Below are positions 37,013 to 41,624 of a stretch of DNA of 64,000 nt, piece after piece (the first letter of the stretch is position 1; every line of letters starts with the position of its first letter). The position numbers and the translations under genes were made by a program. The notes under the pieces are model-generated. The model had not been told where the DNA came from. It did not search any database and saw nothing but the letters and a program-made list of their open reading frames with translations. The stretch lies in assembly GCA_039189765.1 (NCBI GenBank), contig JBCCYL010000008.1:64001-128000 (forward strand), in the 5' to 3' direction. This stretch comes from Cyanobacteria bacterium P01_F01_bin.150. GTDB lineage: Bacteria; Cyanobacteriota; Cyanobacteriia; CAKZMO01.

Positions 37013-37723
37013 TTATTTACGGATAGAAACAGAGGGCCGATATTGGGTCAAAAATGGAACAGCAGACAAAAGTGCCAATAGCCCCAGGGATAGCATCAAT
37101 GGGAGCATTCCTTTGCCATTCCAGGCATCCCACCCAGTCACTCCCAACCAAGTGTATGCAAGAGTACCAGGAATAATGCCAACAAATGTGCCGACAGTGT
37201 AGGTCTTAAAACGCACACGGGTAAGACCAAATAGAAAATTAACGACTGAAAACGGAGAAATGGGCGCAAAGCGAATCGCCAGAACGCAGCTTAAATCATT
37301 ATGTTTAACAAGCCGATTTATTTTCTTCAAAGCAGTATGGTGGCTAAATCGTTGCTCTACCCAGTGACGCAAACAATACCGGGCAAGACAAAAGGCAGCG
37401 ATCGCCCCTAACGTTGCCCCCACCACAGACCATACGGTTCCCCAAAATAGACCAAATACAAGCCCACCGATAAAGACTAAAAAGGTACCTGGAACGCCTA
37501 CCAAAGCAGCAACGGTATGAGCGACAAGAAAAATAGCGACGCTCCAATCACCATGCTGGTTCAAATATTGCACCCAGGCCGCTTGGTCAAAGACGATTCC
37601 AAACCGAGCCATCACCGCAGTATTTCTCAGCGATCCAATGCAAACAGCCAATATTGTCCCCAGGATGACAAAACCCAGGAACGTACGCCAGCGATGCCAA
37701 AGACATTTCGAAAACAGTGACAT
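37013..37723 (-). CDS. TVP38/TMEM64 (DedA/VTT) membrane protein
   Basis: PG......GG.VFG...G..WS..GAT.GA..AF.LARY; RFAPISPFSVVNFLFGLT. Confidence 0.92.
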   Translation of the reverse strand: MSLFSKCLWHRWRTFLGFVILGTILAVCIGSLRNTAVMARFGIVFDQAAWVQYLNQHGDWSVAIFLVAHTVAALVGVPGTFLVFIGGLVFGLFWGTVWSVVGATLGAIAAFCLARYCLRHWVEQRFSHHTALKKINRLVKHNDLSCVLAIRFAPISPFSVVNFLFGLTRVRFKTYTVGTFVGIIPGTLAYTWLGVTGWDAWNGKGMLPLMLSLGLLALLSAVPFLTQYRPSVSIRK

Positions 37724-37895: not shown

Positions 37896-39617
37896 TTAAA
37901 AGCGATCGCCAATATTAAACAGCAGCCCCGTATCGCCATTGTCTGCAATCCCAAACTCCAGCCGTACCGGGCCAATGGGAGTCCGTGCCCGTAGACCCAA
38001 GCCATACCCTAAGCCTGCCCCTGGTTTATCGCGAATTTCAGCAGGTTCGCCCAAAATAGTGTCTCCGGATCCGAGATCATTGGCGTAATCCACAAACAAC
38101 AACCCACCAATATCGATATCTTCCTTGAAGGCTGTAAAGTCGAAAATCGGGAAGCGATATTCAGCAGTTGCCTGTAAAAAGCTGCGGCCACTGCCCACAT
38201 CGCCTGAATCATAACCACGTACAGAACTACTGCCTCCCAAGCTAAAGGCTTCATAGGGAGGTAAATCGCCAATAAACGTTCCCCCTTGAAGATTTAACAC
38301 CAGAGTTTGGGGACCATCGTCAAACCCAAAAATCGGCATGGGGATAAAGCGTGTATAGTTAGCCGCCAGACGATTGGCAAATACGTCTGCATCACCCACT
38401 GGAATAAACTGATCGGTGCGGAAAAGGAGGCGATCGCCCTCCGTCGGGTACTGATTATCATCGCGACGGTCCCAGGCTGAGGCGAAGGACAAGGACAACA
38501 GGTCATCCCTTCCATCGCCACTAATACTTAGGTCGTTACCCAGTTCATCATCGGTAAAAATATCGTCGGTAAACGCATCATCTCTGATAGAAACGCTCTG
38601 GTAGGACAGCCCTGTGGCGACAGCAAAATCCGAGGAATAGGAGCGAAAAACCTCCACGCCTCCCCCTAAGCGATGTACCCATGGATCGCGATCGTTGGCT
38701 AGCTCAACCTCGCGATCGCCCCCATTAAATACGGTTTGTACTTCTCGACGATTAAAGAAATTAACGGCCACACCAGTACGATGCTGACCATCCAAGAGCC
38801 ACGGATTTGTATAGTTAATATCAAAGCTGGCAACGCTTTCGCCGCCCTCAACCCCTAAAGCAAGGGTCTGGTTATAGCCCAGTAAATTAGTGAGTTGAAA
38901 TTGAAGCCCGTTAGAAATACCGCCGCTTCGACTGGTTCCTGGCAATACCGTTGCCGGTTCGGTCGGTCCCATTAAAGCAGTAGGATGGGGCAAGGTTAAC
39001 CCAAAGGCAACCGGAAAAGGACGCTTTTCATCGACCGTAATCAGCATTACTGCTTCTCCTGATGCTCCGGGCTGGAGAGATACAGTGGCTGTTCGCACAA
39101 TATCCAAGTTTAGAACACGCTGTAAACCAGCCTTAGCTAACTCAGCATCATAGGCATCGCCGATAGTCAGATCAAACTCACGGGTAATGATAAACGGACG
39201 GGTGTGGCCATCTACCGGTTGTCCATCATCCACATACTGGACTTGAATATCTGTTAATCGCTCTCCACTGCCCTCAGGCACTTCTGCGTCGTTAGCATCA
39301 CTACCAAACTCAGACATGCGATCCTGGGCAAATAGCGATGGAGTATTATAGGTTGGTTGCACTAGCTGACCCGGCTGACCCAGCGATTGACGATCTTCCG
39401 TATTAAGTCTCTGCCAGGAAGGAACCGGAAGCATATTCGAGTTAGCTGATGGTGCCCTGTCCTCCGGGGCTACCATCGTCAATGATGCTGCAAGGGGAGC
39501 CTCCGCCCAGCTAGGAAAAGCGATAGCAACATTTGCCACACTCACCATCGCGGCTCCTGCTATCGGTCTAACAATTTTGTGAATCGTCCATCCCAAACAC
39601 TGATGTCCCAAAACCAT
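37896..39617 (-). CDS. Omp85 (BamA/TamA family) outer-membrane protein with about one POTRA domain
   Basis: T.PFIITREF POTRA, F.LGGSSSVRGY, AEYRFPI, G.G.R..TPIGPVRLEFG, C-terminal F. Confidence 0.9.
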   Translation of the reverse strand: MVLGHQCLGWTIHKIVRPIAGAAMVSVANVAIAFPSWAEAPLAASLTMVAPEDRAPSANSNMLPVPSWQRLNTEDRQSLGQPGQLVQPTYNTPSLFAQDRMSEFGSDANDAEVPEGSGERLTDIQVQYVDDGQPVDGHTRPFIITREFDLTIGDAYDAELAKAGLQRVLNLDIVRTATVSLQPGASGEAVMLITVDEKRPFPVAFGLTLPHPTALMGPTEPATVLPGTSRSGGISNGLQFQLTNLLGYNQTLALGVEGGESVASFDINYTNPWLLDGQHRTGVAVNFFNRREVQTVFNGGDREVELANDRDPWVHRLGGGVEVFRSYSSDFAVATGLSYQSVSIRDDAFTDDIFTDDELGNDLSISGDGRDDLLSLSFASAWDRRDDNQYPTEGDRLLFRTDQFIPVGDADVFANRLAANYTRFIPMPIFGFDDGPQTLVLNLQGGTFIGDLPPYEAFSLGGSSSVRGYDSGDVGSGRSFLQATAEYRFPIFDFTAFKEDIDIGGLLFVDYANDLGSGDTILGEPAEIRDKPGAGLGYGLGLRARTPIGPVRLEFGIADNGDTGLLFNIGDRF

Positions 39618-39817: not shown

Positions 39818-39835
39818 TTTCTCAGGAATTTCTCA
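39818..39835 (+). promoter_or_regulatory. Putative OmpR/PhoB-type direct-repeat site TTTCTCA-N4-TTTCTCA
   Basis: Exact 7-bp repeat with 11-bp period, 65 bp upstream of the Cys-rich gene. Confidence 0.4.
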
Positions 39836-39900
39836 TAAACAGGCAGTTTACTGAGAGAGACTCATAGCTATCGTCTTAAAAAATGTTTTAGAGGGAATCC

Positions 39901-40209
39901 ATGAAAGTTAAACTAGCCAGCCTTGCCATTACTTCTTCCATCCTTTTAGGAACGGTTGCTTGCGGTGCTAATCCCTGCGCAGGTGCCACGAAGCAGGAGA
40001 ACGTTGATCCTTGTGCAGCGGCAGACCCCTGTGCGGCAGACCCCTGCGCAGCAAAGAGCGCCGATCCTTGTGCAGCAGACCCCTGCGCAGCAAAGAGCGC
40101 CGATCCTTGTGCGGCAGACCCCTGTGCAGCGGCTGATCCTTGTGCGGCTGATCCTTGTGCGGCAAAGAGTGCGGATCCCTGTGCGGCTGATCCCTGTGCT
40201 GGAAGCTAA
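39901..40209 (+). CDS. Cys-rich lipoprotein with 12 [D/N]PC repeats
   Basis: GAGGG RBS; lipobox LLGTVA-C21; one NPC plus 11 DPC units, with synonymous variation in this frame (gat/gac, cct/ccc, tgt/tgc). Confidence 0.85.
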   Translation: MKVKLASLAITSSILLGTVACGANPCAGATKQENVDPCAAADPCAADPCAAKSADPCAADPCAAKSADPCAADPCAAADPCAADPCAAKSADPCAADPCAGS

Positions 40210-40289
40210 GCTTGAACGTCAATCCAATTCTTCCCGTTTAGCGTTTCATTGTTCTTAAGACTTATCCTAAGCAGCTATGACATGGGCAA

Positions 40290-40349
40290 AAACTGGAAGG
40301 ATATCCCTGAAGCCCCCGCTAAAGGGGGACTTCAGTTTCTAGCTTTTTT
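40290..40349 (+). terminator. Putative intrinsic terminator or stabilising hairpin after the Cys-rich gene
   Basis: CTGAAGCCCCC-GCTAAA-GGGGGACTTCAG followed by TTTCTAGCTTTTTT. Confidence 0.5.
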
Positions 40350-40518
40350 GAATGAAGACGAACATCAGCCCCACACCTTGACAAACGGTGAATGGAGAGA
40401 ATAATTCAGAGTTTTGAATCTCAAATATGTACCAGTAGCCTGAGTTAAAGACGTTAGCCTGGGCATAAAAGGCTTTCGCACCGATCACTGAATTGCACAC
40501 TAGCAAAGGGAAATCAAT

Positions 40519-41067
40519 ATGATTGTAAAAAAAATGTGGGTGGGTATGGCGATCGCGTCCACCCTTCTTCTCGGGACAGTCGCTTGTTCCGATAAATCTA
40601 CTTCAAGCGCAGAAAATGCCACCACATCGACTCAAGTCTCTGATGCTGGTGCTCCTAATGCCGATACCGTTACTCCTGATGCCGAAGTTGCGCTGCAGGT
40701 TAACGTGGAAGAGGGTGTTGCGATTGATGGAGCCGACCCAGTGGCCTACTTCACTGAAAGCAAAGCTTTAATTGGCGATGCTGCTTTTGCCCATGAATGG
40801 CAAGGGGCGACCTGGCATTTTGCTAGCGCTGAAAATCGTGATCTCTTTGCGGAAAATCCCGAGCAGTATGCACCTCAGTATCTAGGCTATTGTGCTTGGG
40901 CCGTGAGCCAAGGATATACCGCTCCCATCGATCCAGAAGCCTGGAAGATTGTCGATGGGAAACTATACCTGAATTACGACAAGCGAGTTCAGGACCGCTG
41001 GTCTAAGGATATTCCTGGCAATATTGCTAAGGCTGATGCTAATTGGCCTGGTGTGCTAGCAAACTGA
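40519..41067 (+). CDS. YHS domain-containing (seleno)protein family lipoprotein, Cys form
   Basis: Lipobox LLGTVA-C; AIDG.DPVAYF, W.GATWHFAS.ENRDLF..NPE.YAPQY.GYCAW, IDPEAW.IVDGKLYLN, A..NWP. Confidence 0.9.
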   Translation: MIVKKMWVGMAIASTLLLGTVACSDKSTSSAENATTSTQVSDAGAPNADTVTPDAEVALQVNVEEGVAIDGADPVAYFTESKALIGDAAFAHEWQGATWHFASAENRDLFAENPEQYAPQYLGYCAWAVSQGYTAPIDPEAWKIVDGKLYLNYDKRVQDRWSKDIPGNIAKADANWPGVLAN

Positions 41068-41411
41068 AGAACCGCATCTTAGATTGCTTAGCTAATGTCA
41101 GACGTGAACACTTAAGGTAAGCTTACGGAAGGCAGAATGCCTCATAACTTTGCATTAAAATGCAACTTAATTATTTTTTAGAAGAGTATTTAATGCTCAG
41201 AGAGGTAGGTAATGCCAGTGCAAACCTGCCTCTTTCATTATGAGTTTAAATAAAAGTCTTTTGAATTTTTATCGATCAGCTCTGAGTGTTTTAGGGCAGC
41301 CTTTGCTAGGCTGCTTTCTTAAAAGCCTGAATATCGGTAGCATCGATAACCCAAAACTGCCACCACGCAAACCAAATCTACCTGAATAGAGTGAAGTCAC
41401 AAGATATCGAA

Positions 41412-41446
41412 CGGGATACTGAGGCACTCTGTGCCTCAGTATCCCG
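41412..41446. repeat. Perfect 16-bp hairpin
   Basis: CGGGATACTGAGGCAC-TCT-GTGCCTCAGTATCCCG. Confidence 0.85.
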
Positions 41447-41624
41447 CATAAAAGACAAGCCGAGTGAGTTGAAATTTTATTCGTTCGCATAGGCGCAGTT
41501 TGAACTACAAAAAACTGCTCTAAATATGTTCTTAGATTACATAGAAATAAAGGATTAAGTGTTAGACAATAAGAAGTATTATCATCATCAGCATTTTTTA
41601 CCAGTTCTTTAAGGAGTTTTAGAA

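Follow-up and report, generated by a model that had tools for sequence, protein, structure and literature searches.

An Asp/Asn-Pro-Cys repeat lipoprotein of a cyanobacterium, a candidate thiol sink of the cell envelope

Introduction

What could a cyanobacterium gain from an exported protein built almost entirely of Asp/Asn-Pro-Cys units? The question is raised by a small Cys-repeat lipoprotein gene in a 64,000-nucleotide stretch of DNA from Cyanobacteria bacterium P01_F01_bin.150 (contig JBCCYL010000008.1, positions 64,001 to 128,000; this whole stretch is called the window here), in which it is followed by a gene for a lipoprotein of the YHS family. An earlier description of this DNA (the original prediction) proposed a tethered metallothionein-like peptide, or a peptide made by ribosomes and altered after translation (RiPP), with a YHS partner. 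The open literature, subscription papers and supplements aside, gave no account of the repeat or of its regulon, and a search for the motif returned unrelated text. By analogy with MrpX, a methionine-rich scavenger, we propose that the repeat protein may be its cysteine counterpart, a tethered sink of many unmodified thiols that takes up the oxidants reacting with them, a reading to which we give a probability of about 0.45.

The repeat peptide and its module

The stand-alone gene (39901..40209, + strand), detected in an open reading frame (ORF) scan and with 78 homologues of similar length, encodes 102 amino acids. A predicted 20-residue lipoprotein signal peptide leads to the lipobox Cys21 (LGTVA-C; 39901..39963, + strand; also supported by homologue comparison) and is followed by twelve [D/N]-P-C-A units of the forms DPCAA, DPCAAA and DPCAAKSA (39970..40206, + strand). 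The mature chain of 82 residues holds 13 Cys, 12 Asp or Glu and 4 Lys or Arg, with neither His nor Met. The original prediction was right about the ORF, the signal, the 12 motifs and the 13 Cys, as well as about the use of different synonymous codons from unit to unit (Asp GAT 7/GAC 4, Pro CCC 7/CCT 5, Cys TGT 9/TGC 3). When the 10.6-Mb genome is read in six frames, this is the sole stop-to-stop frame with at least three [D/N]PC motifs. The protein is predicted to be anchored to the membrane outside the cytoplasm.

The peptide has no match in Pfam and none near a cut-off in NCBIfam, no bufferin or EGKCG family model of either library matches it, and no sequence-related solved structure was found. 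The repeat tract is predicted to be unfolded: AlphaFold2, run on the peptide alignment, gave a predicted local distance difference test (pLDDT) value of 48 and a predicted template modelling (pTM) score of 0.19, with no fold, and the Atlas model has a pTM of 0.08. An Atlas feature search with the peptide retrieved unnamed clusters only, all below 0.9.

The repeat is an unnamed module. Some lipoproteins consist of it alone; in other proteins it is joined to an exported domain of the YHS, thioredoxin, DM13 or c-type cytochrome kind. In the best 80 of 109 confirmed loci of a genome scan, 50 contain the stand-alone gene only, 11 a repeat-YHS fusion only and 4 both (54/80 and 15/80 in all, respectively); the remainder consists of six cytochrome fusions, two DM13 fusions, three other or truncated forms and four loci with none. 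Longer proteins with the repeat (best 120 of 356 matches) carry YHS, DM13, thioredoxin, SoxA/TsdA-like and P460 domains. Among 54 longer representatives that were scanned, 14 have a SoxA/TsdA-like domain, P460, CCP_MauG alone, thioredoxin and YHS are found once each, 25 have no family, and 11 have other or low-complexity matches. The frequent fusion partners are all of redox type, namely YHS, thioredoxin (WCxxC), DM13, and SoxA/TsdA-like and P460 cytochromes. Of 301 cyanobacterial genomes, 33 are positive for the module profile, three with a weak or partial match, and the module is present in 15 of the 16 genomes of the family to which the window organism belongs. Cultured strains are among the carriers, for example Leptolyngbya sp. 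PCC 7375 and PCC 6406, both represented in the genome scan.

Composition statistics were obtained from 63 distinct stand-alone peptides. Pro precedes every repeat Cys, and Asp or Asn precedes Pro in 462 of 476 units. Of 413 intervals between Cys, 300 have a spacing of 5, and the peptides contain neither His nor aromatic residues. A lipobox-like Cys is found in 56 of the 63. In cyanobacterial repeats the smallest Cys spacing is 4-5, and CxxC, CxC and His are absent. The number of Cys per repeat protein ranges freely from 3 to 31. This free count, the Pro before each repeat Cys and the lack of His and aromatic residues point to a titratable thiol pool, not to a fixed fold or site.

A structural alternative would make the repeat an inert element, that is, a disulfide-looped spacer or an envelope cross-linker in which the Cys are permanently paired. 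The tract is indeed placed like a linker between signal and domain, its copy number is free, some orthologues (the window YHS protein included) lack it, and the prevailing spacing could allow i,i+5 loops about an Asx-Pro turn. However, if it were only a spacer, the repeat would not have been kept in 54 of 80 loci as a separate gene that has an operator to itself, and the Cys counts, 32 odd and 31 even, show no bias towards even numbers. A fixed disulfide pairing of the peptide is thus unsupported, and the structural role as a whole is very unlikely.

Two further types of repeat protein were seen. At seven loci (L022, L023, L027, L031, L038, L061, L070) a second lipoprotein lies directly upstream of the peptide; it has acidic, Ala-rich repeats of helical type, ends in 3-5 DPC units and has no operator. 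Proteins P0060 and P0075 combine DPCAA/DPCAG repeats with a conserved C-terminal GRGFxLS tail, and Atlas clusters of their length are mainly from Myxococcota.

Predicted regulation of the module

The peptide gene is preceded by a predicted operator of the OmpR-family type, the 11-bp-period direct repeat TTTCTCAGGAATTTCTCATA (39818..39837, + strand), which lies 83 bp before the peptide start. Its consensus is TTCTCAG-N4-TTCTCAG, and TCTCA at an 11-bp period is common to 36 of 112 upstream regions of module genes. A matrix built from 62 distinct sites, with the window left out, scored at least 14 bits in 68 of 110 training upstream regions, compared with 5 of 110 sequences after reversal and 1 of 330 after shuffling. 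With 22.3 bits, the window operator is the top of the 69 sites of at least 15 bits on both strands of the genome. In a held-out set of 19 loci (21 further loci minus two duplicates of training loci) 17 scored at least 11 bits, versus 1 of 19 reversed sequences, 2 of 190 shuffled sequences and 73 of 5071 background genes. A sigma-70 promoter scan of the region remained at chance level.

The candidate binder is suggested by a second position of the same repeat. At loci with an adjacent cupin-kinase-regulator operon, the operator faces this operon in 9 of the 12 that were scored, the module-facing copy being a weaker variant (5-13 bits in most). It is also found upstream of the kinase in this genome (16.6 bits) and in two module-free genomes (19.4 and 20.9 bits); two further copies of the kinase (L176, L184) showed no such site. 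This autoregulation-type arrangement points to the regulator of the kinase operon, and we infer that the kinase-paired regulator binds the repeat. In 18 of 18 kinase sequences the periplasmic domain retains a single invariant Cys (12/12 and 6/6), together with one His. The sensor domain has no sequence-related solved structure, and the kinase-regulator pair was not matched to a named system of a model strain.

ManS/ManR and other cyanobacterial metal two-component systems, as presented in the available part of PMC7020235, likewise combine a kinase with a periplasmic loop, an OmpR regulator and an 11-bp direct repeat. ManR was nevertheless rejected as the regulator: the Mn-type ABC transporter operon of this genome has ATGAAA-N5-ATGAAA twice, not TTCTCAG-N4-TTCTCAG, and no matrix site of at least 9 bits. 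The two ATGAAA-N5-ATGAAA repeats are located at G000:C63 40429 and 40470, between divergent genes of the metal ABC transporter. We take these repeats to be ManR sites, and the operon to be the Mn one.

Where an ECF (extracytoplasmic function) sigma/anti-sigma pair adjoins the module, an ECF-type promoter replaces the operator. The latter is mostly missing at ECF-adjacent loci (2/10 versus 77/102 elsewhere), and AATCC-N16/17-CGT, a pattern drawn by eye from the same ECF-adjacent loci, is present at 7 of these 10, versus 0 of 102 elsewhere and 20 of 5124 in the background. All five Rhodobacteraceae loci adjoin ECF sigma factor and NrsF genes, and carry GTAACC-N16-CGAA. In the available text of PMC3511200 this is the SigF motif, and periplasmic Cys residues of NrsF are required for control; in that of PMC4436054, SigF-NrsF of Azospira induces MrpX, a periplasmic, sacrificial scavenger of HOCl. 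Judging from these promoter patterns, three different regulators seem to govern the same module. The other module regulators count among the known sensors of thiols or chlorine, which is in favour of a thiol sink.

In the Rhodobacteraceae island (L026, L060, L068, L076, L083), DUF6969, NrsF and ECF sigma genes diverge from the gene of a P460-like CxxCH protein, which contains 27-36 Cys, and from DUF3179, with a SigF promoter. Synechocystis sll0685-sll0688 is a possible counterpart of the thioredoxin-CcdA-sigma-anti-sigma set, papers confirming the labels of sll0685-sll0687 only.

Operator-like sites were also observed before other genes of this genome. In the window, a VTT/DedA-family membrane gene (37013-37723, - strand) has a 12.4-bit site 59 bp upstream and is a possible regulon member; VTT genes also occur near the module at L122 and L135. 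Elsewhere, such sites precede a DUF3179 gene (G000:C6:73958-75070, - strand; 14.7 bits), the gene of an exported 512-amino-acid protein (C168:8180-9718, - strand; 21.0 bits), a GT2 glycosyltransferase gene (C35:37428-39053, + strand; 20.2 bits), a thioredoxin gene (C96:35555-35881, + strand; 12.7 bits) and a gene that we assume to be cyanase-like (C128:21244-21687, + strand; 19.1 bits).

The YHS lipoprotein

The next co-oriented gene (40519..41067, + strand) encodes a YHS-family lipoprotein, as had been recognised before; it is 182 amino acids long, has the lipobox Cys23 and belongs to the YHS (seleno)protein family NF041384 (172 bits, cut-off 70). The conserved Cys/selenocysteine position already pointed out for this family (here GYCAW) is Cys125 (codon 40891..40893, + strand), the sole invariant Cys (G-x-C, G-x-selenocysteine in some), conserved in 38 of 38 aligned sequences and 40 of 40 extracted domains. 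According to the available part of PMC13188914, selenocysteine is read at this position in other family members. The sources read describe no function for NF041384, whose members are here placed in a predicted regulon and often bear the repeat arm. No sequence-related solved structure exists for the YHS protein; pLDDT reached 87 in one of five models and 47-56 in the other four, and a structure search matched the model only to single YHS-like repeats in ciliary proteins and diiron monooxygenases.

The two lipoproteins share their signal, which the original prediction took as a sign of common origin or co-targeting. With BLOSUM62, the 13-mers before the lipobox Cys score 51; in a comparison of 530 ORFs that contain a lipobox-like motif, this is the best non-self value, and the runner-up scores 38. 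Comparison with relatives favours a common origin. Five genomes of the same family, two of them of the same genus, have the same peptide-YHS tandem (L152, L153, L154, L158, L159), and in these the lipobox of the downstream YHS protein is still separated from the domain by 2-5 repeats. In L157, a sixth genome, there is a single fused repeat-YHS gene with 6 repeats. These six relatives are kin. The window YHS protein, whose nearest relatives are the same-genus tandem copies (75%), has a Cys-free linker with zero repeats where they have 2-6. The signal common to both proteins is therefore most readily explained by duplication of a front end made up of signal and repeats. Most probably, the front end of a repeat-YHS gene was duplicated in tandem to give the peptide gene, and the window YHS gene later lost its repeats; the YHS tree does not discriminate between fusion first and split first.

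As a partner, YHS is conserved next to the peptide in this family but is not obligate, since 20 of 33 module genomes lack it. The YHS family is found in 13 of the 33 module genomes and in 4 of the 54 stand-alone loci (from the best 80 of 109), and the module is absent from 9 of 22 genomes with YHS. Nor is YHS the sole carrier or partner, because thioredoxin, DM13 and cytochromes bear the same module.

Between the peptide and YHS genes lies a G+C-rich hairpin (40307..40335, + strand; -20.3 kcal/mol) that matches a terminator, in a scan in which one such hairpin was found versus 1.7 in shuffles, i.e., not above chance. As a possible terminator or attenuator, it would shift output towards the peptide and away from YHS. 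No Rfam family matches the intergenic DNA, which is single-copy. Further downstream (window about 41410-41460) there is a palindromic element of ~53 bp with ~25 similar copies genome-wide, one of them on C267 between the cupin gene and the FGE-fold (formylglycine-generating enzyme) gene described below. The genome has two more YHS-family lipoproteins (L002 1468-2034, L003 1306-1878), which form a distant subgroup with GGYCTFG and are devoid of repeats and operator.

Neighbouring genes

Neighbourhoods of up to 16 kb were compared for 33 loci from 29 of the 32 other positive genomes. The recurring neighbours are a cupin (21 loci), thioredoxin (14), CcdA/DsbD-TM (13), the kinase-regulator pair (13), repeat-YHS (10), ECF sigma factor (8) and RskA-type anti-sigma factor (7); the raw kinase cluster comprised 16 loci, three of which were dropped as other kinases or for want of a regulator. 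The cupin is nearest to 3-mercaptopropionate dioxygenase (best solved relative, E 8e-14) and cysteine dioxygenases, keeps its His triad in 38 of 39 sequences, and occurs in 30 of the 33 module genomes and in 47 others. Around the kinase in further genomes (18 selected loci) there are genes for YHS, DM13, DUF4079, thioredoxin-CcdA, thioredoxin-reductase-like, AhpC/TSA-like, DUF3179 and peroxidase proteins. MsrPQ is not among the recurring neighbours. The periplasmic thiol or metal role envisaged in the original prediction fits these neighbours.

In this genome the cassette is scattered, with the kinase-regulator pair on C6, where the regulator gene is at G000:C6:98911-99585, and, at G000:C267:7252-9384, the thiol-dioxygenase-like cupin gene divergent from an exported gene of the formylglycine-generating enzyme (FGE) fold, which runs into the contig end. 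In the window, a short Omp85/BamA-family paralogue (37896-39617, - strand) is divergent from the peptide gene, and is not recurrent in the neighbour clusters of related loci.

The cupin, being a relative of thiol dioxygenases, and the SoxA/TsdA-like cytochromes, common fusion partners outside cyanobacteria, could also suit a carrier of sulfane sulfur or thiols, in which the Cys would be persulfidated or thiol-loaded and passed to partner enzymes, like the SoxY arm, for instance for sulfide handling in mat cyanobacteria. However, no sulfide:quinone reductase, rhodanese, SoxYZ, YeeE or persulfide dioxygenase is among the recurring cyanobacterial neighbours at these loci, and a single Cys is what a carrier requires, whereas the repeat proteins have any number from 3 to 31, so that this role appears unlikely.

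Candidate maturation enzymes

Bufferins and oxazolins, in the available parts of bioRxiv 10.1101/2024.03.18.585515 and PMC12452194, are likewise exported small proteins with Cys, some of them lipoproteins and some with repeats. Both are described there as Sec-exported copper binders modified by MNIO/DUF692 enzymes and, in alphaproteobacteria, controlled by SigF/NrsF, as copies of the module also seem to be. The Sec/lipoprotein signal of MNIO-type RiPPs is present in the repeat peptide and in 56 of 63 homologues. The module differs in that no DUF692 or partner gene is linked to it, its motif is another one, and no fold is predicted; the available text of PMC12452194 contains no match for NPC, DPC or YHS.

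The RiPP-like part of the original prediction found no support. DUF692 is absent from this genome, which is 99% complete, and occurs in 2 of the 33 module genomes, in both more than 700 kb from the module; of 24 radical-SAM matches in this genome none is on the contig of the window. On these grounds, maturation by DUF692 and radical-SAM enzymes was rejected. CefA, a RiPP of model NF038108, also has Cys at every fifth position, and one fused homologue scores 19.5 bits. However, this is under the 30-bit cut-off, the window peptide is unmatched at E 0.1, and no radical-SAM neighbour recurs.

The repeat could still be a RiPP precursor if an enzyme whose gene lies elsewhere converted its Cys. The most plausible such enzyme is the exported FGE-fold protein, the gene of which directly precedes the peptide gene in other cyanobacteria. 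It lies 117-331 bp upstream on the same strand in 18 of 54 stand-alone loci (from the best 80 of 109), it was found in 3 of 301 genomes at E 1e-40 or better, each with a stand-alone peptide, its product keeps the two-Cys motif KGCSWDDLPGFC, and lipoprotein RiPPs exist (available part of PMC13056109). On the other side, it is absent from 30 of the 33 module genomes, the operator is missing before it in 19 of 19 loci, in this genome it is on another contig, and DUF692 is unlinked to the module. Moreover, Asp stands in place of one of the two FGE copper Cys, and there is no CxPxR substrate motif, both motifs being what we take to be those of FGE. Such a precursor is therefore highly improbable, and the FGE-fold maturase is demoted to a clade-limited possibility.

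Proposed function and rival readings

In the thiol-sink reading, the repeat protein would be a chain of 12 Asp/Asn-Pro-Cys units behind a predicted lipid anchor, likely unmodified and unfolded. A Cys-bearing sensor kinase and an OmpR-type regulator would induce it through the upstream repeat, the signal probably being thiol oxidation by HOCl/HOBr, peroxide-derived species or other electrophiles. Outside the cytoplasmic membrane, the peptide would then consume oxidants and electrophiles that react with thiols, and its Cys might be kept reduced and recycled by partners such as the YHS protein, whose Cys125 could act on the repeat Cys. Periplasmic Cys in two of the regulators, partners that are reductants, single-Cys proteins or thiol-dioxygenase-like, and a free number of equivalent Cys without a fold make a recyclable thiol sink the simplest reading.

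Several points weigh against this proposal. Exported cysteines are normally oxidised to disulfides, and for this reason the reduced state of the repeat Cys is an assumption. Many of the loci are from close kin and are not independent counts. The window YHS gene starts 309 bp downstream of the peptide, beyond the hairpin, and its own upstream region scores 2.3 bits, i.e., it has no operator. No close orthologue of thioredoxin-CcdA, the pair that would restore the thiols in other cyanobacteria, was found in this genome, the best thioredoxin matches covering 40-57 residues and the CcdA match being 32% identical. The kinase of this genome is 39% identical to the cassette kinase, and 29% in the sensor domain; a second regulator gene of the genome also has a site, of 13.1 bits, and the sensor domain is unmatched in 7 of the 33 module genomes. 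The best NCBIfam match of the kinase is a heavy-metal sensor family (231 bits, below the 293 cut-off), and SigF/NrsF is described, in the available parts of PMC3511200 and bioRxiv 10.1101/2024.03.18.585515, as also answering to Cr and Cd and as governing copper bufferins. With these three traits the regulators would fit metal stress equally well.

The same traits support a metallothionein-like buffer, in which unmodified thiolates in the periplasm would be ligands of Cu(I), Ag(I), Cd or Hg, and the sensor would detect the metal through its Cys and His; the density of 13 Cys in 82 residues also suits it, as does the Cys-rich YHS domain that senses copper in a mycobacterial cyclase (PMC4626032, available part). 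However, that YHS/TRASH site uses Asp and three Cys, whereas the window YHS family keeps one. Neither a metal efflux pump nor CopA, a multicopper oxidase or a chaperone is among the recurring neighbours (best 80 of 109, plus the 33 loci), and the cyanobacterial repeats have no CxxC, CxC or His. The bacterial metallothionein SmtA resembles the repeat peptide in being small, rich in Cys and poor in hydrophobic residues. SmtA is a cytoplasmic protein with CxC/CxxC motifs, His and a zinc-finger fold, controlled by SmtB; the repeat peptide has a lipobox instead, and none of these motifs. A metal buffer is accordingly a doubtful reading, though one to be taken seriously.

The thiol-sink reading has its closest parallel in MrpX and YedYZ (MsrPQ) under SigF-NrsF in Azospira suillum, as described in the available part of PMC4436054. 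Like the repeat protein, MrpX is a small peptide of low complexity that is exported, abounds in one sulfur amino acid and belongs to a small regulon with an envelope sensor and with a cupin gene adjacent, and Rhodobacteraceae copies of the module would be under the same type of regulator. The differences are clear: MrpX is rich in Met, whereas the repeat peptide is rich in Cys, has a mature chain devoid of Met and would be lipid-anchored; the repeat is also an arm on enzymes; its partners are thioredoxin-CcdA, YHS, DM13 and cytochromes instead of MsrPQ; and its cyanobacterial regulator is a two-component or a sigma/RskA pair instead of SigF-NrsF. The hallmark of an exported small protein under an envelope stress sensor is found here as a signal plus an operator or ECF promoter, with probable binding by the regulator. 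As a candidate for a co-regulated reductase, thioredoxin-CcdA is present in 13-14 of 33 loci elsewhere, with no close orthologue in this genome. The locus would thus resemble, in its mode of action, a known kind of system, the sacrificial scavenger of the periplasm, while its chemistry, its partners and its control are different.

Conclusions

New here are the operator and its replacement by ECF promoters, together with the rejection of ManR and of DUF692 and a series of YHS proteins, some split from the repeat and others fused to it. More tentatively than for the peptide itself, a cross-phylum system of periplasmic thiol defence can be envisaged, based on an Asx-Pro-Cys poly-thiol arm that would act as a lone sponge or be grafted onto thioredoxin, YHS, DM13 or haem domains. 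The grafted domains would strip or re-reduce what the arm had caught; control would be exerted in cyanobacteria by a Cys-sensing two-component system through TTCTCAG-N4-TTCTCAG, and elsewhere by ECF sigma factors.

Thiol protection outside the cytoplasm is poorly known in oxygen-producing cyanobacteria. The locus joins the repeat family, the YHS selenoprotein family, DM13, DUF3179, DUF4079 and a sensor kinase in one predicted regulon with a 20-bp operator, so that the inducing signal, once found, would assign a role to all members together. An encoded poly-thiol arm of tunable length could also serve metal capture or surface chemistry. If the proposal is true, it would provide the first function for the YHS selenoprotein family, DM13 and DUF3179, and the first thiol-stress regulon of the cyanobacterial envelope.

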